The notes under the pieces were generated by a model, which was given only the letters and a program-made list of their open reading frames with translations, was not told the origin of the DNA and ran no database searches. A DNA stretch of 64,000 nt, from IMG/VR virus record IMGVR_UViG_3300045988_142422; one strand, given 5' to 3'. This document shows positions 4,276-47,931 of this stretch, piece by piece (the stretch's first letter is position 1; every line of letters starts with the position of its first letter). Made by a program: the position numbers and the translations under genes. The stretch comes from a virus (Duplodnaviria; Heunggongvirae; Uroviricota; Caudoviricetes).

Positions 4276-4357
4276 AAACCTCTTTCCTTAGTGCCTTTTG
4301 TATGTTATTTGGCTATTATAATAAGTAAGTGATTACTTAGTGGATTGTAGCAATAAA

Positions 4358-5038
4358 ATGGATGTAAAAATCACGATTTTGCAGGTTGATGTTGCCAACC
4401 TTCGCCCGAATACCTGGAACACCAATTCGGTTGGTGCGCAGAATTTTGAAAAACTGAAAGGTTCTATCGAAAAATTGGGCTTTTTTAAGCCAATTTTGGC
4501 TCGTGAACTTGAAGATGGATTTTTTGAAATCCTCGGCGGTGAACATCGCTGGCGTGCTGCTATTGAGCAAGGAATTTCAACGGTTCCGGTGCTTTCTGTG
4601 GGCAAAATTAGCGATGTCGTAGCTAAACAGATGTCACTGGTGGACAACGAGCGATACGGTGAAGACGACCAAATCGCATTGCAACGCTTCATTGAAGAAA
4701 TTCAGTCAGAACTTGACTATCAACTGTCTGAAATCGCCCCGTATGACGACGAAATCTCGATGGTTTTAGCAAAAGAGGCGGCAATCGACCTTGAAGCACT
4801 GGAGGCGTTGTCTCGTGGTAGTGATGAGCCTGTCGATACCGACAAACGAGAGAAAACCGAACGTGTGGGTGCGGAACATCAGACCATGCGCTTCAAAGTA
4901 ACTTTCGATGCGTCAGATCGTGTTGCAGAAACCATAAAAAACATCATCAAAGAGCAGGCTATTAACACCGGTAATGAAATGGAGAACGCTGGTGAGGCTC
5001 TGGTGTGGCTGGTCGACTACTACAAGGAGCGTATGTAA
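4358..5038 (+). CDS. ParB/Srx-like N-terminal domain protein 1
   Basis: GGEHRWRAA matches the ParB GxRRxxA box; acidic middle region. Start set at ATG 4358 (the track start 4340 is GTG). Confidence 0.65.
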   Translation: MDVKITILQVDVANLRPNTWNTNSVGAQNFEKLKGSIEKLGFFKPILARELEDGFFEILGGEHRWRAAIEQGISTVPVLSVGKISDVVAKQMSLVDNERYGEDDQIALQRFIEEIQSELDYQLSEIAPYDDEISMVLAKEAAIDLEALEALSRGSDEPVDTDKREKTERVGAEHQTMRFKVTFDASDRVAETIKNIIKEQAINTGNEMENAGEALVWLVDYYKERM

Positions 5039-5706
5039 TGACCAAAAAGTTTGAAATCGTATATCGCGACCCGGCAGATCTTATTCCCTATGAGATGAAT
5101 GCCAAAAAGCATGATGAACAGCAGATCAGAGATTTGGCCGCAGCCATTAAAAAGCGCGGATTTGACCAGCCAATTACGGTCGATAAGAACGACGTAATTA
5201 TTACTGGCCACGGCCGCCGTGAGGCTGCAATTTTTGCTGGACTTGAGCGCGTACCGGTTATTGTTCGTGATGATCTGAGTGATGACGAGGTTCGTGCGAA
5301 GCGCCTTGAAGATAACCGACTTGCCAGCATTGATTACGATGCAATTAAGCTACAGAAAGAGCTTGAGTCGCTTGTTCTGGACGATATTGAGGTTTTCGGC
5401 TTTGAAGAGCGTGAGTTGAATGTTCTCGTTGGCAGTATGACAGAAGAAATGGACACCGACTCGCTAGTTATCGATCTTGGCGAAGAAACTAAACGACAGA
5501 AGGATGAACACACCGAGATCAGTCGTGAAGTTGCAGCGGAAGAAGTACGTGTTGTCGACGTATTGGGCTTTAAAACGCTCCCTGCTGGCTCTGCCATTGT
5601 TGTTGGTGATTTGCTTGCCCATATGGAAGAAATGACGGGAGAAAGCGGGGTAGACGCATTTGTGGCATATGCGGAGAAGATCTCTTCCGGGGAGATGGCT
5701 GCATGA
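5038..5706 (+). CDS. ParB/Srx-like N-terminal domain protein 2
   Basis: ITGHGRREAA ParB box; ATG overlaps the upstream stop (TAATG) with AAGGAG 9 nt upstream. ORF track lists an extended 5005 start. Confidence 0.65.
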   Translation: MTKKFEIVYRDPADLIPYEMNAKKHDEQQIRDLAAAIKKRGFDQPITVDKNDVIITGHGRREAAIFAGLERVPVIVRDDLSDDEVRAKRLEDNRLASIDYDAIKLQKELESLVLDDIEVFGFEERELNVLVGSMTEEMDTDSLVIDLGEETKRQKDEHTEISREVAAEEVRVVDVLGFKTLPAGSAIVVGDLLAHMEEMTGESGVDAFVAYAEKISSGEMAA

Positions 5707-6368
5707 GCAAATACATCATCAACGTATCGTTTCAGACACGCGTAAATAAAACCACGCGCACGTTGGAAATCGCTGAGTCGTTCGGGCTTGGCCTGGACGA
5801 AAAAGAGTGGACGCTTTACGACAATCTGGAGCTGGAAGTGAAGCAGGGCGATGTGGTGTACATCACCGGCCAATCCGGTTCCGGCAAATCCGTTGTGCTG
5901 CGCGAGTTGCAACGACAGATGAAGGATGAAGGGCTGTCTGTAGCCTCCATCGATGATTTTACCTTCGATAATGAGGTTAACGTCATCGATCAGTTGGGCA
6001 AAACGACCAGTGATGCGCTTGGGTTGTTATCTATGGCTGGTCTGAACGATGCATATCTGTTTGTTCGCAAGCCTTCTGAAATGTCAGACGGCCAGAAATA
6101 TCGTCTCAAGATTGCCAAACTGATTGAGTCAGGCGCTAAAGTATGGGCTGCTGACGAGTTCGGCGCTGTTCTCGACCGTGTAACCGCTCAGGTTGTGGCG
6201 TCTAACCTCCAGCGTGCCGCTCGAAAGGTTGGTGCGACGGTAATGGTGGCGACGACTCACGAAGACCTGAAGAACGCGCTGCGCCCTGATATGCAGATCA
6301 CCAAGCACTACAAAGAACGCGTGAAGGTGGAATATCACAATGGTAGTCATGATGAGGTCCATTCATGA
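5703..6368 (+). CDS. Minimal ABC-type ATPase (221 aa)
   Basis: Walker A GQSGSGKS, ABC signature-like SDGQKYRL, Walker B VWAADEF, H-loop TTHEDL. ATGA overlap with the upstream gene. Confidence 0.7.
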   Translation: MSKYIINVSFQTRVNKTTRTLEIAESFGLGLDEKEWTLYDNLELEVKQGDVVYITGQSGSGKSVVLRELQRQMKDEGLSVASIDDFTFDNEVNVIDQLGKTTSDALGLLSMAGLNDAYLFVRKPSEMSDGQKYRLKIAKLIESGAKVWAADEFGAVLDRVTAQVVASNLQRAARKVGATVMVATTHEDLKNALRPDMQITKHYKERVKVEYHNGSHDEVHS

Positions 6369-7255
6369 CGGACATCATCATTAAACGCTACCGCCCTGAA
6401 GAGTTTCCGCGTCATCTGGACTTTCTGGAGCGAATGACTGTTACAAAGGGAACTGTAGAGGACTGGCACGCTCTTAAGTCGCTTCACTACAAAACAGACG
6501 GCAAACCTTTCGCGCCAACTTACTATCGCTGCGAACTTGATGACCGTCTGGTGGGCGTCGTGGTTATGGCTTACCCGAAACTACTGTTGGCACCTCGCCA
6601 CCGCATGTTTCCTAAGTTGAAACCAACCACTAATACCACCGTGGCTAACCAGTACTGGGGTCGGTACGTGAATAACAACTTTGCGGTGATCAGTCGCTCA
6701 GTTGTGGATACTCAGTATCGTGGCGTAGGCGTCTCTTATAGAATGATTAACCTGGTTAGCAGGATGCATGACCGGCCAATCATTGAGATCCAGTCCTCGA
6801 TGAGCAAATACAATCCCTTCGCCATGAAAGCAGGGTTTAAGTTCATCCGCCCTGAGCGACCGAAGAGCTATGAAAGTGCACTGCGTGTGTTCCAGCGCCA
6901 TTTCCGCTCCGACCCGGGTGATAACGAGGCGATCGTCAAAGAATTGTTCGCTATGAGCGAGTCTCGTCGTCGCCGTGCGCTGCGCGATTTGGTGGCGGAC
7001 TACCATAAGAACAGTTCCCTGGCAAAAGCTGGGCGGAATCGTGGCACGACGATTCAGGACATTGCCGACAGTCTGGTGGACGAGGCCAGCATTGTGAAGC
7101 TGCTCAAGGACATTCACAACCTGAGCTTTACGTCTCCGTTGTATGGTGTGTACCGAAACCCTGACTTTGGCCGTCGACTGCCTGACACGCTGCCACTGCT
7201 GGCATTCGACAAACAACCTTTGGATAAACCGTTAGAAATTGCTTTACCGGCATAA
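6365..7255 (+). CDS. GNAT-fold acyltransferase-like protein (296 aa)
   Basis: DTQYRGVGVS resembles the GNAT RxxGxG/A acyl-CoA-binding motif, followed by NPFAMKAGFKFI. ATGA overlap with the ATPase. Fold assignment is tentative. Confidence 0.45.
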   Translation: MTDIIIKRYRPEEFPRHLDFLERMTVTKGTVEDWHALKSLHYKTDGKPFAPTYYRCELDDRLVGVVVMAYPKLLLAPRHRMFPKLKPTTNTTVANQYWGRYVNNNFAVISRSVVDTQYRGVGVSYRMINLVSRMHDRPIIEIQSSMSKYNPFAMKAGFKFIRPERPKSYESALRVFQRHFRSDPGDNEAIVKELFAMSESRRRRALRDLVADYHKNSSLAKAGRNRGTTIQDIADSLVDEASIVKLLKDIHNLSFTSPLYGVYRNPDFGRRLPDTLPLLAFDKQPLDKPLEIALPA

Positions 7256-7264
7256 GGATTTGCC

Positions 7265-7531
7265 ATGACGTTAACCGACAAACAAAAGGACATCATCAAA
7301 ACGCTCAATCTCGGTTATGAGCGAGGTCATCTACTTGACCTGGACGAATTGCTTGAAGTTTTGCCGTACAAGACAACCAAGCAAAGTATCCAGTTCTCAA
7401 TTCGCGCTCTGATAAAAAAGGGGCTGGTGGAGAAAGGGCATACGCGCCAACGCAGTGACAATCGCTATCACCGCCGGACTCTTGGGTTAACCACTTTAGG
7501 TCGAGCCAAAGCGAAGTTACTGGTGATGTAA
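7265..7531 (+). CDS. Small putative winged-helix DNA-binding protein (88 aa)
   Basis: Basic 88-aa ORF directly after the GNAT-like gene; the sequence pattern suggests a wHTH. Weak. Confidence 0.4.
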   Translation: MTLTDKQKDIIKTLNLGYERGHLLDLDELLEVLPYKTTKQSIQFSIRALIKKGLVEKGHTRQRSDNRYHRRTLGLTTLGRAKAKLLVM

Positions 7532-7554
7532 TCGGTCTGGGAGCTTATTTAAAG

Positions 7555-7611
7555 ACCTGCATCTGTATATATAAATAATAAGTAACTTATTAAATATATA
7601 CGGAAGCAGGC
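7555..7611. repeat. 57-nt inverted-repeat element, copy A
   Basis: ACCTGCATCTGTATATA ... TATATACGGAAGCAGG arms around an AATAAGTAACTTATT core; a near-identical copy lies at 39921-39978. Confidence 0.7.
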
Positions 7612-7726
7612 TTCGTAAGACATGCCAGACCTAATTAAACACCCCAGAAAACAAGTTGGTTAGCAGATGCAGTAAACAAGTTGTTTTAGAGCGCATGGAC
7701 GCGCTCTGTGTGTTTTAGAGGGATCT

Positions 7727-8359
7727 ATGACGGTCGAAAAAGACGAGGTAAAAACTCGCCTGACACCAGCGGAGTGGGCCGAAGCTGAAGCCAAATGGAC
7801 GTCAGGCGAATATACACTCTCAAAGCTGGAGGAAGAGTACGGCATTCGTCGTGAAACACTCTCCAGACATTTCAAAAAGCGAGGATTAGAGAAAGGCGCG
7901 GACTCTGTTGGGAAGATGGTTCGTGAGTCTCTTAAATCTGACGCAGAGCTTCGCGCTAAAGCCCGTGCGGAAAAGATAGAAGAACGTCGTACACGTTATG
8001 ACGGCTGGGCGTATGCGTTGGGGCAGATGGTGATGGTCGAAGTCACTACGGCCAAACGTGAGGGTAAGCCTTTAGGGGCGATTGAGGATTCTCTCAAGAG
8101 CTTACAGAGAGCCAGTAATACCCTTGCAAAATGCTTTGAAGTTTCGTCCAAAGCATTGGGCATGGATCATGCGGAAAATGACGAGGAAGAAATTCCGAAC
8201 CTGGTATTTGGTGAGCTTACGCCTTCCCAGGTGGCGAAATTACGTCAGGAAGACGACGAGCCTGAAATCATCGATGACGAATTGCTTGAGACGTTGGAAG
8301 AAGAAGCTCTAAGCGAATTTGATGCGACAGATGATGGAAGTGAAGGGGAGGACGAATAA
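7727..8359 (+). CDS. Terminase small subunit (putative)
   Basis: Sits directly upstream of and abuts the large terminase; N-terminal HTH-like region and a strongly acidic C-terminus. Confidence 0.55.
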   Translation: MTVEKDEVKTRLTPAEWAEAEAKWTSGEYTLSKLEEEYGIRRETLSRHFKKRGLEKGADSVGKMVRESLKSDAELRAKARAEKIEERRTRYDGWAYALGQMVMVEVTTAKREGKPLGAIEDSLKSLQRASNTLAKCFEVSSKALGMDHAENDEEEIPNLVFGELTPSQVAKLRQEDDEPEIIDDELLETLEEEALSEFDATDDGSEGEDE

Positions 8360-9615
8360 TGGCAATCCCGTCCTCGCTCAGTCTTGTGCAACTGCATTCT
8401 GGACAGATGAAAGTCTTCCAGTCTCCGCATCGATTTAAAGTTGTTTGTGCTGGTCGACGCTGGGGAAAATCCCGGTTGTCGATCTCCACTATTATTCGTG
8501 CGGCGGCAAAGGAAAAAAAGCAAAGAGTCTGGTATGTCGCTCCTACTTACCAGATGGCTCGCCAGATTTTGTGGGACGATCTACAGGAAGTTCTGCCTCG
8601 TAAGTGGGTTAGGAAAAAGAACGACACCACGATGACAATCGTGTTGAAGAACGGTTCGGAGATCGCCCTCAAAGGTGCTGATAAGCCTGACACTCTGCGC
8701 GGCGTAGCGTTGCATTTTGTAGTGCTTGATGAATTTCAGGATATGAAGGCTGACACCTGGTACAAGGTGTTACGACCTACTCTTTCATCGACACGCGGCG
8801 GTGCACTGATCATTGGTACGCCAAAAGGCTTCTCGGAATTTCACAAACTGTGGACTATAGGCCAGAACGTAGAGCTGCAAAGAAAGGGACAGTGGAAGAG
8901 CTGGCAGTTTGTAACTGCCGATTCTCCGTTTGTACCTACGGCGGAAATTGAAGCTGCTAAGAACGATATGGACCCGAAATCGTTCGCTCAGGAGTACCTG
9001 GCGAGCTTTGAGAACATGTCCGGGCGCGTTTACTACCCGTTCGATCGTAACGTGCATGTAAAACCGCTTCAGTTCAACCCTCGGTTGCCTATATGGGTAG
9101 GGCAGGACTTCAACATTGACCCGATGTCTTCAGTAATTTTGCAACCTCAGCCAAATGGTGAGCTATGGGCAATTGATGAATTGGTGCTCTTTTCCTCTAA
9201 CACGGCAGAGGTTTGTGATGAGCTTGAGAGACGCTTCTGGCGCTGGAAATCACAGATAACGGTATTTCCAGATCCGGCAGGTGCTTATCGCCAACATGCT
9301 CGCGGGGAGTCTGACGTCGACATATTCAAAGAGAAGGGATTCTTACGTGTCGATTATTCGAAAAAGCACCCGCCAATTGCGGATCGTGTTAATGCTGTTA
9401 ACCGAATGCTGATGACCGCATCTGGAGATATCCGGCTGTATATCGATCCGAAGTGCAAGCATTTGATTGATTCACTGGAAAAAGTCATCTACAAGCCTGG
9501 AACACGAGATATGGATAAGACAGGTGGCATTGAGCATAGTGCAGACGCATTGGGCTATCCAGTACATCGTAGGTATCCAGTCAAAAACCGTGTTATTCTT
9601 GGTGGTTCTCGATAG
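8359..9615 (+). CDS. Terminase large subunit
   Basis: Walker A-like VVCAGRRWGKS, Walker B VVLDEF, C-terminal nuclease-like region; followed by the portal gene. Confidence 0.8.
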   Translation: MAIPSSLSLVQLHSGQMKVFQSPHRFKVVCAGRRWGKSRLSISTIIRAAAKEKKQRVWYVAPTYQMARQILWDDLQEVLPRKWVRKKNDTTMTIVLKNGSEIALKGADKPDTLRGVALHFVVLDEFQDMKADTWYKVLRPTLSSTRGGALIIGTPKGFSEFHKLWTIGQNVELQRKGQWKSWQFVTADSPFVPTAEIEAAKNDMDPKSFAQEYLASFENMSGRVYYPFDRNVHVKPLQFNPRLPIWVGQDFNIDPMSSVILQPQPNGELWAIDELVLFSSNTAEVCDELERRFWRWKSQITVFPDPAGAYRQHARGESDVDIFKEKGFLRVDYSKKHPPIADRVNAVNRMLMTASGDIRLYIDPKCKHLIDSLEKVIYKPGTRDMDKTGGIEHSADALGYPVHRRYPVKNRVILGGSR

Positions 9616-33000: not shown

Positions 33001-34485
33001 GAGGTTTTAGGTCACGAAGGCGCAATGACCATCCGAGTTACTACGCCTACAACGACAACCGGAGGTGGTATTGCCAGTGCTCAGTTCACCTATATTAATC
33101 ACGGTAGCGCGTATGCCCCTGCCTGGCGCAGAGATTACAACACGACTCTCAAACCAACTGCGGCTGATGTTGGTGCGTTGCCGAGCGGTGGCGGCACACT
33201 TTCCGGCGCACTCACATTATCTATGGTTGCGCCGAGTGTTCAATTACGAGGGCAAGGTACTGATACCAGGCAGTACATCATGGCTTACAGAACCGATGGT
33301 GCTACATCATGGTATGTAGGTAAGGCTAACAACGGCTCTGATAGCGCGATGCTCTGGAACTATACGGGGGCAAACGGAGTCGAGTTGGCTGCCGATGGCA
33401 ATGTGCGCATTAATGCGAAGGGTAAGCAGTTTACGTTCGCAAACAACGGCAATTTGGGGCTTGTCGCTTCGTTGGATCAAAGTTCTGTTCCACAGGGCAC
33501 TTACCATCAAGTTGCTATGAACTCTGGAACCAGAGGTGCTAAATCCTATCTTCGTAAGTTCAGGGGTGGGAACGCAGATACCGTCTGGCATGAAACCGTT
33601 CAAGACGGAAATTACCGACTTGCTACTGGTGACACTGATTCTCAGGGTGAAATGTACCTTTCGACTTCGGGTTGGGTTCGTTTCCGTGGTGAAGTTGTTT
33701 CAGAATCGGCCAATGGTTTGCGAGCCGCATTCGGTAACTTCGGTTTCTTTATCCGAAATGATGGAACGAACACTTATTTCCTTTTGACAGCTTCAGGTGA
33801 CAAGTACGGTTCTTGGAATGGTTTGCGGCCTCTGACTATCAACAATGTCAGTGGCGCAGTGTCAATGAGCAACGGACTAACTGTTGCTGGTGGACTTAAT
33901 GTAACGAGCGGAAACCTGAAAATCTCGACGTCCAGCACATCGTGGATCGACATGAGAGCAGGCGTAGCCCTTTCGAACTCTTCAGCTGTTTCGACGTCAT
34001 CCGCTTCGGCGATAGTCCGTCAAGAACACGCCGATCGCCATTTCATTCTTGGCGGTTTGGGTAACTCGCAGTTCGGGATTTACATGATTAACAAATCTCG
34101 AACTGCGAACGGCACTGACGCTGCCGCTTATCTCCAGAACGACGGCACTTGGGTTTGCGCAGGCAACGGTAGTTTTAATGACGTTTACATCCGTTCCGAC
34201 CGCCGTAGTAAGCGCAATATTCGCAAAATTGAGCGGGCGCTCGACAAGCTGGAGCAGATCGAAGGTGTTCTCTACGAGATTCAGGTCTGTGGCCGTTATG
34301 AGCAGTCTGGTGGCCTCATCGCTCAGGATGTCCAGAATGTTCAGCCTGAACTGGTAACGGTCGACCATAACGATCAGTCAGGAGAGCCTCGTCTGCGTCT
34401 TAACTACAACGGCGTTATCGGCATGTTGGTTGAGGCTGTCAAAGAGCTGCGCGAGGAAGTGCGCGAACTGAAGGCAAAAATGTAA
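30097..34485 (+). CDS. Tail fiber protein with C-terminal intramolecular chaperone (peptidase S74-like) domain
   Basis: AAGGAG before ATG. Ala/Ser-rich low-complexity region (about 30580-31450); three ATKLQTAR.IGGV.FDG.ANINLPGV fiber-type repeats (about 32170-32510); C-terminal YIRSDRRSKRNIRKIERALDKL motif typical of autoproteolytic chaperone domains. Confidence 0.8.
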   Translation: MWYREGTITFTQGSNTLVGAGTAWNVTANGVLPGMIVIGPDNKLYEIKRVTSDTNIVLSEPYTGETQSEVPCRIITTYEGDLTQFSARFTALMSRMSADSKSMRSWLTALDEVTIEREDGTEVTVKPLMQIVNEHNENVEWYKNNTDAIDAAGDKAREAAASAAAAAESANTAGEKASQASQSVSAAASSQSAASASATAAKKSETNAAASQQSAATSASTATTKASEAATSARDAAASKEAAKSSETNASLSASSAASSATAAGNSAKAAKTSETNARSSETAAGQSASAAAGSKTAAASSASAASTSAGQASASATAAGKSAESAASSASTATTKAGEATEQASAAARSASAAKTSETNAKASETSAESSKTAAASSASSAASSASSASASKDEATRQASAAKGSATTASTKATEAAGSATAASQSKTAAESAATRAEAAADRAEEIAGAVAMEDASLTTKGVVKLSSAVDSTSESLAATPKAVKAANDNANSRVPSNRKVNGKALTADITLTPKDIGTLNSVTMSFSGGAGWFKLATVTMPQASSIVYIALIGGAGYNVGSPHQAGISELVLRAGNGNPKGITGALWKRTAVGLTNFAWINTSGDTYDIYVEIGNYATRVNIHWDCTANATVSIYTSPTYSASKPSSVTDGVVYTMYSSHQKPTPSDIGALPTTGGTVSGPLSVTGGLTGSLNGNASTATKLQTARSIGGVVFDGSANINLPGVNTTGNQNTTGNAATATKLQTARTIGGVSFDGTANINLPGVNTAGNQNTTGNAATATKLQTARNINGVKFDGSGDININTLVSRGRVTALSGSTQGTAGIQMYEAYSNNYPTSFGNVLHMKGASAAGEGELLIGWSGTDGAHAPVYVRSRRDTSTANWSGWAQVYTTAHKPTAKDVGAAQTFSASYSTGAGNWTTAEFIAWLKERGAFAVPYWMMKGSWSYADNKIITDTGVGNICLAGAVIEVLGHEGAMTIRVTTPTTTTGGGIASAQFTYINHGSAYAPAWRRDYNTTLKPTAADVGALPSGGGTLSGALTLSMVAPSVQLRGQGTDTRQYIMAYRTDGATSWYVGKANNGSDSAMLWNYTGANGVELAADGNVRINAKGKQFTFANNGNLGLVASLDQSSVPQGTYHQVAMNSGTRGAKSYLRKFRGGNADTVWHETVQDGNYRLATGDTDSQGEMYLSTSGWVRFRGEVVSESANGLRAAFGNFGFFIRNDGTNTYFLLTASGDKYGSWNGLRPLTINNVSGAVSMSNGLTVAGGLNVTSGNLKISTSSTSWIDMRAGVALSNSSAVSTSSASAIVRQEHADRHFILGGLGNSQFGIYMINKSRTANGTDAAAYLQNDGTWVCAGNGSFNDVYIRSDRRSKRNIRKIERALDKLEQIEGVLYEIQVCGRYEQSGGLIAQDVQNVQPELVTVDHNDQSGEPRLRLNYNGVIGMLVEAVKELREEVRELKAKM

Positions 34486-37658: not shown

Positions 37659-37976
37659 GTATTCCTCCTGATGGCCGTGATGTAGGAAGGCCATCAATCT
37701 CCTCTGTTCAAACTGAGTTTTCGACTCAAAAATTACTTTAAAAGGCTATAGCCCATTACGTGTGCATTATCAAATTGTGTACGGCATATCACCGTACTTG
37801 TAATATAGAGGTCATTGTTACTTTTTTCAACAGACAAATACAAGCTATGATTGCCAATTGTTAATCACAACCTACCATTTAACCTTTACACCGCAGCCGT
37901 AGGCATTTAGGCTATATCACATATAAGAAAACAAGTTGTTTCAGACGATAATTATATACGCAAAGGGAACTCTCCA

Positions 37977-38645: not shown

Positions 38646-39004
38646 TGTCCATGAAAATGGGTGACCTAGCAAAGCGCAAAGAGCCTGATGCACCGGCTAA
38701 GAACACAACTCCTTTGCGCCAACCAGTCAGACCACAGGGACGCCCGACTCGTGGCAAAGAGAAAATTAAAAGCCGCACAATGTCACTGGAGGACGAATAC
38801 TTCGAACTGCTGGAGATGATGAAGTTCATCCCTCGCTTCGAGAAGTTCACTCGTTCTGACGTGATTCGAGCTGCTATTTTCCATCTTGCGGAGAAGACAC
38901 CGCAGGAAATCGAGGACATCGTGAAACTTAACGAGGCGATCACAGCTGCCGACGTAACGATGCGTACCGATGAAATCAAACGCGAGTTGATGAAGAAGAG
39001 TTAA
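38645..39004 (+). CDS. Small centromere-binding partition protein (ParG/RHH-like, putative)
   Basis: 119 aa, basic N-terminus, start overlaps the parA stop. Confidence 0.5.
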   Translation: MSMKMGDLAKRKEPDAPAKNTTPLRQPVRPQGRPTRGKEKIKSRTMSLEDEYFELLEMMKFIPRFEKFTRSDVIRAAIFHLAEKTPQEIEDIVKLNEAITAADVTMRTDEIKRELMKKS

Positions 39005-39009
39005 GAATA

Positions 39010-39035
39010 AGGCGCCAGATGGCGCCTATATTTTA
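39010..39035. terminator. Bidirectional intrinsic terminator between convergent genes
   Basis: AGGCGCC-AGAT-GGCGCCT hairpin followed by ATATTTT. Confidence 0.55.
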
Positions 39036-39042
39036 AAGTGGT

Positions 39043-39720
39043 TTATTTATTGCCAGACGGTAATACATAGTAGCGGATTGTAGTACCCTCCATTTCAATA
39101 ACCTTGAATGCAAGGTTTTTATATTCGACTTTTGTTTTCGCATCGGAAAGAGGCACTGAAAACTCGGTCTTAGTTTCATCTAAACTTGGGTAGCTTTCGG
39201 AATAAATAAATTTAAGGTCGTCGCCACTTTTGCCATTATAAGAAATAGACTGAACAATCTTTTTCTCTACATGGCAGGGGACATTTTGTGCGAATTTTAT
39301 GGATATTTCGGAGGCGTCGAACGTCGTAGTGTTGGGAGGAGATATAGTGTTTTTGACCTTGTCATACTTGACGTTATCAGTGTGGCTCACTACCTGCCCT
39401 GTAATGGCCTTCAGGCCAACAGCTTTTGAGTCTTCAAAGTTCCGGTAGACCCCACCACCAACGTGGCAGTAGTTGCCCGCTTTAATCTCAGACATCGAAC
39501 CAGAAGCGTTACCAAGAGTGACCATGTCGGTTTTTAACGTGGACACAAACGTGTTATAAACGACAAGGTCACCCATTTTCGCCTTTGACTCTACGTTAGA
39601 GGAAGGCAATATTTCTTGGGTTAGGATTGGTTTTACAGTGGCATTTTGTTGTGGGTTACTTTGTTGCGCGCAACCGGCTAATAATAAAACTAAAAGTGCC
39701 GCTGACTTATTCGCCTTCAT
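39043..39720 (-). CDS. Lipoprotein (putative superinfection-exclusion-type moron)
   Basis: MKANKSAALLVLLLAGC: signal peptide plus lipobox; gene is isolated on the minus strand between plus-strand modules and looks AT-richer than its neighbours. Confidence 0.6.
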   Translation of the reverse strand: MKANKSAALLVLLLAGCAQQSNPQQNATVKPILTQEILPSSNVESKAKMGDLVVYNTFVSTLKTDMVTLGNASGSMSEIKAGNYCHVGGGVYRNFEDSKAVGLKAITGQVVSHTDNVKYDKVKNTISPPNTTTFDASEISIKFAQNVPCHVEKKIVQSISYNGKSGDDLKFIYSESYPSLDETKTEFSVPLSDAKTKVEYKNLAFKVIEMEGTTIRYYVLPSGNK

Positions 39721-39920
39721 TCTTAATTCCCTTTCTACGTGATTGGTACATTGTTTATTTCTGGACGTTTCTTAAGTTGTAGACGCTATTCTGTGTCTGA
39801 GTAATCTACAATAATTTGTTACACTTAACAATGTTGCAACCGTCTGGCGTGCAGCTGTTTTGAAGTAGATCTTAAGGTTGCATACCATGAGACTAAAAAC
39901 TAGGTTGGGTTGGTTTTTGA

Positions 39921-39978
39921 CCTGCTTCCGTATATAAATACTAAGTTACTTATTATTATTTATACGGAAGCAGGTCTT
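39921..39978. repeat. 58-nt inverted-repeat element, copy B
   Basis: CCTGCTTCCGTATA ... TATACGGAAGCAGG perfect 14-bp arms around a CTAAGTTACTTATTA core; homologous to 7555-7611. Confidence 0.7.
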
Positions 39979-40083
39979 TTATCTGCTGACTTCCCAGATA
40001 CATTCCCTTCCGTTTCCACTTCCAAAAACTGCCACCAGTCGCTATCATCCGCTCATCGTGATAAGTAAGTAACTACCTACCAG

Positions 40084-40833
40084 GTGAGCCACATGAGCCA
40101 AATCTTTTTCGATACCATCGACAACTACCAGTACGACTTCATGACAGAGTGGAATACCGCTGTTATGGACAAGTGGGTCGCTGAAAACATTGGTTTGTCG
40201 CGCTGTAAAGATGAGGCTGAACTCTTCGAGACGAAGTGGTTTGATTACCGCGACATGCATCCTCTGATGGCCACCTGTCTATTTACGGAGACATACAAAC
40301 GTCAGTACTCAAATATCATGCTGACGCACGGTCGCGAACACTTTGAAACAGCTCCGTTCACCACCGGGTTAAAACGCCTGCCTTATCAGGAGTTGTCGAC
40401 TGCCAATAAAACGTCGCTATGGAAAGCACGCCAGTTTGCTGACCGCTATTGCTGCTCATACGACTACTTTATCTCCACCGTTCTTTCCGCAGCTGCACGA
40501 CGGCTGTGGGACAAGCTGCCGCGCCCACAGCATTTATGGCAGCCAGAGCTGATTGAGATATTCGAAGAGAAATTAGCCAGACGCGCAACAACCCGTCTGG
40601 ATGACTCTCTCGTTAGCTTTAAGCATATGGGAGACATGCAGTTCAACCCGATTCAGGAAAGCTATTTTGAGTGGATTCTGGAGCGTTTACGCACCATCCC
40701 CCGCAGCAAGCGCATACGCGCAATTTTCTCCGCTATCTGGCTAATGGAAATCGTTCCAGAGCGCCTTATTTCCGCCCACTTTCCAGAAGAACTGGAAGAA
40801 GCACGGCGGTTTATTGATCCCCTATCTAATTAA
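40084..40833 (+). CDS. Hypothetical protein, first gene of the replication block
   Basis: ATG with upstream purine-rich stretch. No motif I recognise. Confidence 0.45.
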   Translation: MSHMSQIFFDTIDNYQYDFMTEWNTAVMDKWVAENIGLSRCKDEAELFETKWFDYRDMHPLMATCLFTETYKRQYSNIMLTHGREHFETAPFTTGLKRLPYQELSTANKTSLWKARQFADRYCCSYDYFISTVLSAAARRLWDKLPRPQHLWQPELIEIFEEKLARRATTRLDDSLVSFKHMGDMQFNPIQESYFEWILERLRTIPRSKRIRAIFSAIWLMEIVPERLISAHFPEELEEARRFIDPLSN

Positions 40834-40876
40834 CTAATACTAGAAAACAATTTGTTTAAAAAACAAAGGAAAGCAC

Positions 40877-42217
40877 ATGACCGAACTTTGCCATACAGGA
40901 CGCGGGCTGTCCGAAGAGTTTGATGAAGATTTTCAGAACAGATTGACGGCCTATTTTTGTCGTGATCACGAGTTTCTTACTCGTGCTGGAGATCTGGTTG
41001 TACCTAGCCAATTTGCCAATGCGGCCAATGCCATATTGGTTAATATGGTTTCGGGCTATTACCGTATGTACAAGAGCGCGCCCTCTTCATCTGCAATTCT
41101 GGATATGCTTAAGCGTGCGAAACGCGATAAGACTATCCGTGAGGAACTATTCGCCGATGTTGTTGCTGCGTTTAAGCGCATCCTTGCAGAAAAATTGTCC
41201 GATACCTCGTACATGGTTGACCAGGTATCAACCTTCGCAAAAAGCGTAGCGTTTGATGATGCTCTGATTAAGGCTGCTGAACTGAAAGAGAAGGGCGACT
41301 TTCAGGGGGCGATGGCAATCATGGCCAAGGTTCAGCAGATAGGCTCGAACGAAGCAACCGGAATCTATGACTACTACACCTCAGCAAGTGAGCGACTGAA
41401 AGCGCGTGAATATGAGGCCTCAGAGGAGTATGTGCCAAACAGCATTACAACTGGACTCCCTCTGCTCGATAGGTTGCTGTACCAAAAAGGCTGGGCGAAG
41501 CGTGAAATGGTGCTCTTCATGGGGTTCGCTAAATCCGGTAAATCGACCGCAATGGGTGAGTTTTCCATAAACGCAACGCTTGCTGGCTACAATGTTCTGT
41601 ATCTCTCGCTGGAGGTTCACACCACCATTTTATCCGACCGTTTTGATGCAAGATTGTCGGAGACGGAAATGTCCAAGTTGGTGGAACGGCGCGATGAAGT
41701 TCATCGTAAGTTGGCAGAGTTGGGAGCCTCTAAGGGGATTGGTAGTTTGTGGGTTGTTGAGCGTCCGTCAGGAAGTATGTCACCGGCAGATCTGGACCGT
41801 ATGCTTAACAGCATGAAAGCCAACGGCATGGTGCCTGACATGGTTGTTGTCGACTACGCAGATTTGATGCGTGCCAGTTATGACCTTCGTGATGATCGCG
41901 CCAACATACGTAGTATCTATACCGACTTACGTGCTCTTTATGACAAACACAACGTTGCTGGTATCACAGCATCGCAAACAAACCGTGAAGGTGGCGCGTC
42001 AGAAGTTGCCACAATGATGCACGCTGCCGACAACATCGAAAAAGTACGTATTGCTGACCTGGTAATAACGATCAACAAAACAGAAGAAGAAGAAGCGAAA
42101 GGAGAGGCTCGTCTCTACTTTGCTGGTTCACGTAACCAGCAGGGAGGGATCAGCATTCGCGTTAAACAAAACCTCGAACAAATGCGCTTCATTGAGCGAA
42201 TCTTAGACGTTACCTAA
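40877..42217 (+). CDS. DnaB-like replicative helicase
   Basis: RecA-type core with Walker A GFAKSGKST and Walker B-like VVVDYADL; AAAGGA before ATG. Confidence 0.7.
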   Translation: MTELCHTGRGLSEEFDEDFQNRLTAYFCRDHEFLTRAGDLVVPSQFANAANAILVNMVSGYYRMYKSAPSSSAILDMLKRAKRDKTIREELFADVVAAFKRILAEKLSDTSYMVDQVSTFAKSVAFDDALIKAAELKEKGDFQGAMAIMAKVQQIGSNEATGIYDYYTSASERLKAREYEASEEYVPNSITTGLPLLDRLLYQKGWAKREMVLFMGFAKSGKSTAMGEFSINATLAGYNVLYLSLEVHTTILSDRFDARLSETEMSKLVERRDEVHRKLAELGASKGIGSLWVVERPSGSMSPADLDRMLNSMKANGMVPDMVVVDYADLMRASYDLRDDRANIRSIYTDLRALYDKHNVAGITASQTNREGGASEVATMMHAADNIEKVRIADLVITINKTEEEEAKGEARLYFAGSRNQQGGISIRVKQNLEQMRFIERILDVT

Positions 42218-42364: not shown

Positions 42365-43477
42365 GTGAGCGAGCTGAAAGAGCTAATTACCGAATTAGAT
42401 TTTGAACAATGGTTGGACACTGAAGGTATCGTTTATCGACGTGGAGGCGTGAGTGCTCGCGGTCGTGAAGTGAATATCAAGGAGTGTCCGGTATGCGGCA
42501 GCTCCAACTGGAAGGTATATTTCAATCTGACCAGTGGCGTCGGTAAATGCTTCGCTGGTGATCATCCCGAAGAGATTCAGTTCAATAAGCTGGTCTTCCT
42601 CAAGCACTACAGCGGCAAATCACGACGACAGTTCGAGGAATATGTGCAGAACGCCCTTCTTTCCCAGGGGTGGGCACCAAAGAAAGAAGAGATAGTGCTT
42701 GCAAGCACAGTCGAGTTAGAGGGACCACTTGCACTCCCTCGTCATTACGAACTTCCTATAGATGGCCGTCTTCCAGACTATCTGGTTGAACGAAACATAT
42801 CGCCTGAAATGGCAAAGTATTTTGACCTACGATACTGCGTCGAAGGTAAGCACGCCTATGTAGATCCGTATACAGATCAGGTTAAAGGACAGATATTCGA
42901 TATGCGAATACTGATACCGGTTTACGATCTGGATGGGGTAATGAAGACATTTCAGGGACGAGACATTACCGGTACAGCAGAACGCCGCTACCTCTTTCCT
43001 ATGCAGCTTCCAGCTTCAGGTAAGTTTCTCTACAACGGCCATAATGCAGTCGGCAAACAGACTGTAGTTGTCTGTGAGGGGGCGTTCGATGTTATGGGGG
43101 TTAAACGAGCTATTTTTGACGAAGAAACATTACGTGATTACGTGGAACCAATAGGAACGTTCGGGATGCATCTATCTGGTAACACCACTCAGGATGCAGA
43201 AGATCAGTTAGGCGCGTTCCTGACGCTCAAGGCGCGTGGGTTACGTAATGTGATCATGATGTGGGATAGTGAAAAGCAAGCTATACGTAATACGATGGCC
43301 GCAGCCAGGCGACTGACCAGTATTGGTCTTAATGTCAAAGTGGCGTGTTTGGGCGAGGAAGGACTCGACCCGGGCGATGCAACGCCAGAGCAAATCATCA
43401 AAGCCTATTATCGGGCAAAACCGTATACCAAGCAGTTGGAGTTACAAAGCAAGGTTTTGGGCATTAAGGCTCTATGA
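42365..43477 (+). CDS. DNA primase (zinc-finger plus TOPRIM)
   Basis: CPVCGSS...GKCF zinc-binding motif and TOPRIM-like VVVCEGAFDVMG; GTG start. Confidence 0.65.
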   Translation: MSELKELITELDFEQWLDTEGIVYRRGGVSARGREVNIKECPVCGSSNWKVYFNLTSGVGKCFAGDHPEEIQFNKLVFLKHYSGKSRRQFEEYVQNALLSQGWAPKKEEIVLASTVELEGPLALPRHYELPIDGRLPDYLVERNISPEMAKYFDLRYCVEGKHAYVDPYTDQVKGQIFDMRILIPVYDLDGVMKTFQGRDITGTAERRYLFPMQLPASGKFLYNGHNAVGKQTVVVCEGAFDVMGVKRAIFDEETLRDYVEPIGTFGMHLSGNTTQDAEDQLGAFLTLKARGLRNVIMMWDSEKQAIRNTMAAARRLTSIGLNVKVACLGEEGLDPGDATPEQIIKAYYRAKPYTKQLELQSKVLGIKAL

Positions 43478-47778: not shown

Positions 47779-47853
47779 GATGGTGTAGCTCAGCGGTAGA
47801 GCAGTTGGCTGTTAACCAACTGGTCGGTGGTTCGAATCCACCCACCATCGCCA
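47779..47853 (+). tRNA. tRNA-Asn (anticodon GTT)
   Basis: Cloverleaf readable by eye: acceptor GATGGTG/CACCATC, D-arm TAGCTCAGCGGTAGAGC, anticodon loop CTGTTAA, T-arm GGTTCGAATCC, 3' GCCA. Confidence 0.8.
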
Positions 47854-47855
47854 AT

Positions 47856-47931
47856 GCCGGTTTAGCTCAGTTGGTAGAGCGCCTGCCTTGTAAGCAGGAT
47901 GTCAGCGGTTCGAGTCCGTTAACCGGCACCA
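47856..47931 (+). tRNA. tRNA-Thr (anticodon TGT)
   Basis: Acceptor GCCGGTT/AACCGGC, D-arm TAGCTCAGTTGGTAGAGC, anticodon loop CTTGTAA, T-loop TTCGAGT, 3' ACCA. Confidence 0.85.

Follow-up and report, generated by a model that had tools for sequence, protein, structure and literature searches.

Why should one phage genome carry the same long inverted repeat at more than one gene boundary? The question is raised by a 64,000-nucleotide (nt) stretch of the IMG/VR virus record IMGVR_UViG_3300045988_142422 (Caudoviricetes), hereafter the window, in which an initial annotation had noticed two near-identical elements of this kind (copies A and B). Our best reading, held with moderate confidence, is that the elements fold into RNA hairpins on the sense strand, set as punctuation between three co-directional gene blocks, and there stop or insulate transcription.

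A 2-kb stretch of the window (7000-9000) shared 99.5% identity with Escherichia phage CMS-2020a, 98-99.6% with PhiR41_1 and Cyrano, about 80% with Salmonella phage SSU5 and about 79% with Klebsiella relatives. These identities mark the window as a portion of a phage-plasmid of the SSU5 type, about 108 kb in size, with nearly all of its genes pointing in the + direction.

A coordinate check located both copies where they had been placed (Table 1), and the central TAAGT(A/T)ACTTATTA ascribed to them was found in A as well as in B. The copies have the arms CCTGCWTCYGTATA and TATACRGAAGCAGG in common, around a centre of about 90% A+T. Perfect pairing in copy B runs to 16 bp rather than the 14 bp first counted. 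In copy A the 17-nt arms reach 88% complementarity, the exceptions being an A.A mismatch and a T.G pair; the hairpin of this copy reaches 7552-7613 (AAG...CTT) and is followed by no T-run. The pattern CCTGCWTCYGTATA-N15-40-TATACRGAWGCAGG matched twice in the window and not once in 100 dinucleotide-preserving shuffles; the resemblance of the two copies is far beyond chance. No further copy was found in the window when up to two mismatches per arm were allowed. Copy A ends 116 nt before the ATG of the small terminase gene terS (7727), and copy B ends 106 nt before a GTG at 40084, or 115 nt before an ATG at 40093, of the first open reading frame (ORF) of the replication block; these remeasured distances agree with the first estimates of about 115 and 105 nt.

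The initial annotation counted two copies, whereas a genome holds three. Copy C lies beyond the window, 3' of a Dam methylase gene, and the nearest relatives of the window have it as well. In E. coli Cyrano and Salmonella SSU5 the three sites occupy syntenic positions, the spacing from copy to copy within a genome is 31-47 kb, and every copy is followed after 109-117 nt by the start codon that opens the next block. Scanning IMG/VR with the pattern gave at least 120 loci, on which the class, arm-pair, centre and length counts below are based. When these were sorted by their flanking proteins, every listed locus could be assigned to one of three settings: winged-helix gene, element, terS (class A, at least 47 loci); parA, 119-aa gene and variable gene, element, 246-aa gene and helicase (class B, at least 44); and Dam methylase, element, 76-aa gene (class C, at least 29). 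Only seven matching stretches were present in 185,579 species-representative genomes (GTDB), namely in Kluyvera, Buttiauxella, one 'Yersinia pestis' assembly and one metagenome-assembled genome, and no related palindrome was found 5' of the helicase gene in Acinetobacter phage-plasmids (helicase 37% identical). To judge from this distribution, the element appears to be restricted to the SSU5-like phage-plasmid family and not to behave as a free mobile repeat.

Across the loci, position 9 (Y/R) of the arms CCTGCTTCYGTATA and TATACRGAAGCAGG was variable, and position 6 occasionally so, in a search whose pattern fixed all other arm positions; arm invariance was checked independently in SSU5 and Cyrano only. 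The centre was 24-29 nt long, with a mean of 90% A+T and a variable sequence, and the whole element measured 52-57 nt (55 nt in at least 74 of the at least 120 loci). Self-complementarity of the centre was significant only for the commonest A-type variant and weak in most others; since palindromy of the centre is not general, the picture of a single perfect hairpin spanning the whole element was not retained. Outside the arms the stem extends by a further 2-7 bp with complementary bases that differ by lineage (GAGAG/CTCTG, TATAG/CTATG, GTGGAG/TTCTGC), a covariation that would count for a hairpin.

The pairing is also biased towards one strand. In sense orientation, the variable arm pair among the loci listed was T..G in at least 81, C..G in at least 31, T..A in at least 6 and C..A in at least 2. 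Among unique variants, the non-Watson-Crick pairs of the arms on the sense strand were 38 G.T against 2 A.C, and the 5-nt stem extensions gave 73 G.T against 40 A.C. Since a G.T(U) pair on one strand is an A.C mismatch on the other, the wobble bias suggests that a single-stranded form of the sense strand is what pairs. Structure prediction gave stable folds both as DNA (z-scores -5.2 to -9.6) and as RNA (-6.2 to -8.0, or -5.5 to -8.0 in the set that includes copy C of Cyrano). The sense RNA was at least as stable as the antisense RNA in two of three cases (copy A, -26.3 vs -22.6 kcal/mol; copy C of Cyrano, -30.1 vs -28.2 kcal/mol), the values for copy B being -30.3 (sense) and -30.8 kcal/mol (antisense). 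RNAalifold on flanked alignments recovered the inner stem only. A search of Rfam with the whole window at the gathering threshold, and with both elements at E values up to 10, returned for the elements only sub-threshold hairpins resembling miRNA precursors. The initial suggestion of a paired structural element is in agreement with these sense-strand data.

Next to the arms, the three sites differ. At least five T residues within the 9 nt 3' of the right arm were counted in 20/20 flank variants of B, 17/19 of C and 0/26 of A. Published RNA sequencing (RNA-seq) of a Cyrano lysogen in E. coli LF82 puts CYRAN_28-30 at log2 8-10.8 in most conditions and at 5.2-6.7 in the BLB condition, and CYRAN_31, the homologue of the 246-aa ORF, at 2.3-4.2 (PMC9928086, S1 Table). 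CYRAN_28-30 are the partition genes and the gene that follows them, and copy B of Cyrano sits between CYRAN_30 and CYRAN_31; the transcript level drops more than 60-fold exactly across copy B. Copies A and C are located in silent regions of the lysogen, and the drop could be assessed for B only. The elements had been regarded as too long, and in the loop too AT-rich, to be ordinary intrinsic terminators. This view is not supported, given the T-runs at B and C and the RNA step at B, and the tract TCTTTTAT directly 3' of copy B is sufficient for the exclusion to fail at that site.

The three palindromes sit where three large blocks meet in a largely one-directional genome. Join A lies between the ParB-like/ATPase/winged-helix operon and terS, join B between the partition/cargo region and the lytic replication genes, and join C 3' of the Dam methylase gene. 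When transcribed in the sense direction, each would form a stable hairpin (-26 to -30 kcal/mol) with the conserved arms as its GC-containing base of 14-16 bp. At B and C the hairpin and the following U-tract would work as an intrinsic terminator or insulator, and in the plasmid state the hairpin at B would bar transcription of the expressed partition and cargo genes from the silent lytic replication block. Copy A would be at most a leaky stop, a pause, or a hairpin for RNA-end formation or processing ahead of the terS leader. Gene conversion between the copies would maintain their likeness, and the copies, as the sole sequences common to unrelated flanks, would also be the junctions at which modules are exchanged. 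Whether termination or insulation is the function under selection is an evenly balanced judgement.

The last two of these steps draw on comparisons of the copies with one another. Within single genomes, the copies are closer to each other than to their orthologues. A and B are identical across all 55 nt in at least six genomes, and in other genomes, the window included, the centre of B is different. In one lineage, all three copies have a centre peculiar to that lineage (TATTAAATAATAAAT..), which indicates sequence exchange by gene conversion; gene conversion, rather than a trans-acting factor, may well be what lies behind the sequence identity. Copy B is also an exact mosaic junction, in support of the earlier placement of the elements at module boundaries. 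Homology of the window, Cyrano and SSU5 begins exactly at its left arm, with three unrelated sequences upstream: a reverse-oriented gene in the window, and unrelated forward genes in Cyrano and SSU5. In IMG/VR, likewise, the upstream flanks of site B are many and different and the downstream flanks few and conserved.

A more distant lineage was sampled with K. oxytoca pCAV1015-111 and K. pneumoniae hvKP859, the helicases of which are 68-70% identical. All three sites are still recognisable, and the arms have shifted jointly from the GAAGCAGG type to ..GAGCCAGG (in hvKP859, TATAGGAGCCAGG at A and C and TACAGAGCCAGG at B). At site B of hvKP859 the inner arm tetramers show a compensatory change, CTTC/GAAG to GCTC/GAGC. 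Sites B and C have a degraded left arm and, adjoining the element, canonical terminators consisting of a GC-rich hairpin and a T-run, and site A has an imperfect, G.U-rich hairpin followed by T5-T8. Judged by sequence, the Klebsiella comparison supports transcription termination at these three positions as a probable conserved need. In pCAV1015-111 (L131/L132), sites B and C also have in common a repeat of about 50 nt of that plasmid's own, CCCTTAATTAAAAGATTTTAAAAAGAGCTTTAAATACTATCYRGAGCMAGG, which lies directly 3' of stop codons and 5' of the canonical terminators and ends in the lineage-specific right-arm motif.

Several observations weigh against termination as the full account. The wobble counts come from related sequences and are not independent events, and the arm sequence of the collected loci was preset by the search pattern. 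The 14-nt arms are near-invariant across E. coli, Salmonella, Kluyvera and Buttiauxella while the adjacent intergenic DNA has diverged, and selection on pairing alone would permit more compensatory drift. Copy A has the same arms and, in the SSU5-type lineage, no U-tract, so that termination is not a function common to all three copies. The weakly paired apical 24-29 nt form a large loop, unusual among intrinsic terminators and unlike the short loop (3-8 nt) and compact stem assumed by standard predictors, and a simple consensus terminator scan called neither A nor B. The copy B of the window is flanked by divergent genes; with the par operon's own terminator at 39001-39036 and a reverse gene after it, little sense transcription is left for this copy to stop. 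The Klebsiella lineage retains the motif ..GAGCCAGG of the right arm at the three sites, even where the left arm has decayed and a separate canonical terminator makes it dispensable for termination, which suggests a sequence-specific role beyond the hairpin. Termination alone is insufficient to explain the near-invariance of the arms, their switch in Klebsiella and the tail-less copy A, and these three features leave room, at about one chance in several, for a sequence-specific factor, and less for a role in replication at the DNA level.

Such a factor would be a phage-encoded, sequence-specific protein for which the arms are recognition sites, on duplex or cruciform DNA or on an RNA stem, and this is a minority possibility that we take seriously. 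It could be a repressor or roadblock by which all three blocks are kept silent in the plasmid, or an antiterminator or activator that opens them in lytic growth, with the terminator activity at B and C added or secondary. Arms that are invariant across genera amid diverged flanks would be expected, as would their joint three-site switch to ..GAGCCAGG in Klebsiella, the persistence of the right arm without a left arm beside canonical terminators, the arms of copy A kept without a U-tract, and the 109-117 nt that separate each copy from the start of the next block's first gene. Genes for DNA-binding proteins lie close by, namely those for the 88-aa winged-helix protein and two ParB_N proteins. 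The protein that would bind the arms is nevertheless only hypothetical, and the nearest candidate, the 88-aa protein, has an unchanged recognition helix in the SSU5-type and Klebsiella lineages although the arms differ. Furthermore, the spacing of the arms varies by 5 bp, which is awkward for a dimer bridging them on B-DNA, the strong sense-strand G.T bias is not expected under recognition of duplex DNA, and concerted change can also be obtained by gene conversion, which is directly visible in the centres.

The AlphaFold2 model of the 88-aa protein (pLDDT 83) matched best MarR/MepR-family regulators and small archaeal winged helix-turn-helix proteins (TM 0.7-0.78); no Pfam family was matched, and the protein occurs only within this family of phage-plasmids. 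Rather than the arms, its more likely target is the conserved 13-bp palindrome AAACAAnTTGTTT. This palindrome occurs five times in the window against 0.43 expected, including two copies between copy A and terS, one 36 nt 5' of parA and one between the 246-aa gene and the helicase gene, and Klebsiella relatives conserve it 5' of terS as well. Its probable role is that of operator (or centromere) for some regulator, possibly the 88-aa protein.

A more far-reaching form, which we consider unlikely, is that the three palindromes are a punctuation system read by a phage-plasmid factor as RNA, hairpin DNA or cruciform, which would switch the blocks jointly, or that they are cut or opened to start T4-like recombination-dependent replication on a circular plasmid. 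Equally speculative is the extension in which antitermination or roadblocking toggles between plasmid maintenance and lytic growth and the three-site arm switch reflects co-evolution with the factor.

It is improbable that the elements are lytic replication origins or unwinding or cruciform sites, at which a melted A+T centre would load the DnaB-like helicase and primase, or at which a cut by an SbcCD/RuvC-like nuclease would start T4-like recombination-dependent replication. Inverted arms around a 24-29-bp spacer of 90% A+T do resemble origins with a central unwinding element, copy B lies directly 5' of the genes for the 246-aa protein, helicase and primase, and the family encodes T4-like recombination and replication proteins (in the Cyrano annotation UvsW, UvsY, a gp32-like single-stranded DNA-binding protein, a RecA-like protein, SbcCD and RuvC). 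However, GC skew, which follows gene orientation and gives little information here, has no turning point at A or B, the palindrome has decayed at sites B and C of Klebsiella, which an essential origin would not tolerate, and neither the wobble bias of the sense strand nor the T-runs following B and C would be accounted for. No replication initiator was recognised among the examined proteins near the copies; the structure model of the 246-aa protein (pLDDT 72, moderate) gave no convincing fold match and no support for an initiator.

Packaging had also been proposed initially, and we hold it to be very unlikely that copy A is a pac or cos site for the terminase encoded downstream, with B and C as pseudo-sites or secondary packaging starts. 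Besides the 116 nt that separate copy A from terS, the sole lead is that position 1 of both the SSU5 (NC_018843.1) and the Cyrano (OV696614.1) record lies inside copy A, corresponding to 7593/7594 of the window, 8 nt right of the centre of the palindrome. Cyrano is a re-annotated plasmid that was apparently oriented to match SSU5, so its record start is not independent, and an assembly break at a repeated A+T-rich hairpin explains the record starts equally well. The idea is contradicted by the three equivalent copies per genome, of which only A adjoins terS, and by the large terminase (TerL), which is of the T4-type Terminase_6N, P74-26-like kind and not a lambda/HK97-type cos terminase. No virion ends have been reported for the SSU5 family in the literature searched.

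We see hardly any prospect that the plasmid state uses the elements as scattered partition (centromere) sites, in the manner of the linear phage-plasmid N15, with the partner of ParA or ParB-like proteins bound to them. Copy B does lie about 900 bp 3' of parA and the 119-aa partner gene, and copy A lies 3' of two ParB_N-domain genes. However, another palindrome, AAACAAGTTGTTT, stands 36 nt 5' of parA with four more in the window, in the pattern of a type Ib operator/centromere, the arms do not have the form of short symmetric sites, no partition gene is connected with copy C, and the sense-strand bias and U-tracts would be unaccounted for. The link to plasmid stability suggested earlier found no support, the palindrome at the parA promoter being this different one of 13 bp. 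Finally, a small mobile palindromic element inserted in intergenic DNA (miniature inverted-repeat transposable element or repetitive extragenic palindrome), as its several copies, length of about 55 nt, palindromy and short outer inverted TCTGGG/CCCAGA might suggest, was rejected as scarcely credible, given positions that are fixed and syntenic across genera, no other context among the at least 120 loci listed, seven genome matches that by taxon are apparently SSU5-like elements, and an outer motif that is not enriched in the window.

Table 1 Positions of the elements and of the neighbouring genes and motifs (window coordinates unless another record is named).
Feature	Position	Strand	Remarks
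Copy A core CCTGCATCTGTATATATAAATAATAAGTAACTTATTAAATATATACGGAAGCAGG	7556-7610	+	55 nt
Copy A left arm CCTGCATCTGTATA	7556-7569	+	
Copy A A+T centre	7570-7596	+	
Copy A right arm TATACGGAAGCAGG	7597-7610	+	
Copy B core	39921-39974	+	
Copy B arms GACCTGCTTCCGTATA / TATACGGAAGCAGGTC	39919-39934 / 39961-39976	+	perfect, 16 bp; 26-nt A+T centre between
T-rich tract TCTTTTAT	39975-39982	+	directly 3' of copy B; overlaps last two bases of right arm; T-run in 19-20 of 20 class B flank variants
Copy C, Cyrano record	78084-78138		
Copy A, SSU5 record	spans record junction		
Copy B, SSU5 record	33458-33513		
Copy C, SSU5 record	78304-78360		
Operon ending at copy A	4340-7255	+	
ParB_N proteins	4340-5038, 5005-5706	+	in operon ending at copy A
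ABC-type ATPase	5703-6368	+	in operon ending at copy A
88-aa winged-helix (MarR-like) protein gene	7265-7531	+	last gene before copy A
TCTGGGAG motif	7536-7543	+	12 nt 5' of copy A
Inverted partners of TCTGGGAG	7625-7630 (CCAGAC), 7643-7648 (CCCAGA)		
AAACAAnTTGTTT palindromes	7649-7661, 7674-7686, 37929-37941, 40845-40857, 51974-51986		
GC-rich hairpin (TAGAGCGC..GCGCTCTG) then TGTGTTTTAG	7687-7708	+	about 20 nt 5' of terS start
terS	7727-8359	+	small terminase/DNA-binding protein, phrog_867; first gene after copy A
TerL	8359-9615	+	T4-type Terminase_6N; best solved relative P74-26 TerL
Canonical bidirectional terminator (AAGGCGCCA..TGGCGCCT)	39001-39036		end of parA operon
225-aa gene, phrog_1353	39043-39720	-	in variable cargo slot 5' of copy B
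CCCAGA motif	39993-39998	+	16 nt 3' of copy B
CCAGTCGC + TATCAT	40035-40048	+	likely -10 of replication-block promoter; about 65 nt 3' of copy B, non-repeated
246-aa all-alpha protein, phrog_2500	40093-40833	+	first gene after copy B
DnaB-like helicase	40877-42217	+	
Primase	42365-43477	+	
tRNA genes (two)	47779-47850, 47856-47928	+	
cspA thermoregulator RNA	59423-59841	-	Rfam RF01766, full-length, 185.7 bits
TCTGG(G)/CC(C)AGA(C) motifs, Cyrano L125	~6155-6215		up to three times 3' of site C
~50-nt repeat, pCAV1015-111 record	7490-7545, 59750-59800		

The elements are accompanied by short outer motifs. TCTGG(G) and CC(C)AGA(C) were found at similar distances around all three elements in relatives; at copy B of the window the TCTGG left partner is absent because the upstream module has been replaced. 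The CCCAGAC motif was not enriched across the whole window, and the outer TCTGG/CCAGA pairing was inconsistent in the RNAalifold analysis; this outer repeat is a weak positional observation only.

A sigma-70 consensus scan called no promoter-like site in 7200-7900 or 39600-40300, and the promoter pattern CCAGWCGCTNTANNAT was mis-registered and gives no information. The likely -10 region of the replication-block promoter, not called by the scan, is conserved in SSU5, Cyrano and the Klebsiella lineage. The promoters of the B and C blocks have CCAGWCGC in common, adjoining the -10 box. SSU5 and Cyrano both conserve the GC-rich hairpin upstream of terS, which resembles a terminator or attenuator. 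Another product of the operon that ends at copy A is a 296-aa protein, elsewhere annotated as an ATPase/acetyltransferase and without a Pfam hit. Outside these regions, the Cyrano annotation lists tRNA-Asn, tRNA-Thr and tRNA-Ser at the place that probably corresponds to the two tRNA genes of the window, and the match to the cspA thermoregulator indicates that the phage-plasmid carries a cold-shock-type 5' untranslated region and gene.

A literature search that included the arm sequences found no paper that describes the element or contains the arms. The nearest published counterparts are the PeSL (promoter-early stem-loop) cassettes of T4-type phages. PeSLs are short intergenic motifs, conserved in sequence and repeated within a genome; their stable stem-loop acts as a terminator or attenuator, and they lie at the edges of variable genes, where modules are swapped by homologous recombination (Arbiol et al. 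2010, PMC2839356; Comeau et al. 2014, PMC4122927). They are numerous, clustered in hyperplastic regions, and carry a consensus sigma-70 early promoter and often polyG/polyC stems (PMC2839356, PMC4122927). Like them, the SSU5-type element is a stem-loop repeated at junctions of exchanged modules, with a mosaic copy B and copies that exchange sequence. Unlike them, it has only three copies, fixed at the main block joins and not flanking small orphan genes; 14-16 nt of specific sequence form its stem, below an A+T-rich apex, the repeat contains no consensus promoter, and copy A has no U-tract.

Copies B and C resemble intrinsic (Rho-independent) terminators in having a hairpin with a GC-containing base and a T-run after the last gene of a block, and at B in the RNA step of the published data. 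The elements depart from such terminators in the length of the hairpin (about 55 nt) with its large, weakly paired A+T apex, and in a stem sequence that is identical at three paralogous sites and across genera, as well as in the missing U-tract of A.

Two further systems invite comparison. The stoperators of mycobacteriophages and the C1 operators of P1 are asymmetric protein sites of 13-17 bp, present in a dozen or more copies and bound by a known repressor, which keep the lytic genes silent in the prophage. With these the SSU5-type element shares one sequence in several intergenic copies of a temperate phage and an orientation bias with respect to transcription, but it consists of three long palindromes with no known binding protein. 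The RNase III processing hairpins of T7, which lie between genes and have characteristic internal loops, are likewise of about 50-60 nt and related in sequence, between blocks of a long co-directional transcript. This likeness is relevant to copy A, which lacks a U-tract, whereas B and C differ by their terminator tails.

Phage-plasmids of the SSU5 type are common among E. coli, Salmonella, Klebsiella and Enterobacter; they can carry resistance genes, and their regulation is almost unstudied. The boundary palindromes are most likely a fairly ordinary regulatory feature, with a sequence conservation stricter than pairing alone would call for. In practical terms, identical 55-nt repeats account for assembly breaks in this plasmid family and may also be why the two reference records start inside the hairpin. 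For the biology of the family, the three-site punctuation would mark the ends of transcription units and offer a handle on how the lytic replication and packaging genes are insulated from the expressed plasmid and cargo genes. It would also locate a point of cargo exchange, as the variable slot terminates exactly at copy B. If a specific factor does read the arms, it would be a candidate for the master switch from one lifestyle, plasmid or phage, to the other; if there is no such factor, the elements would be a clean natural case in which gene conversion homogenises terminators that recombination then reuses as junctions.

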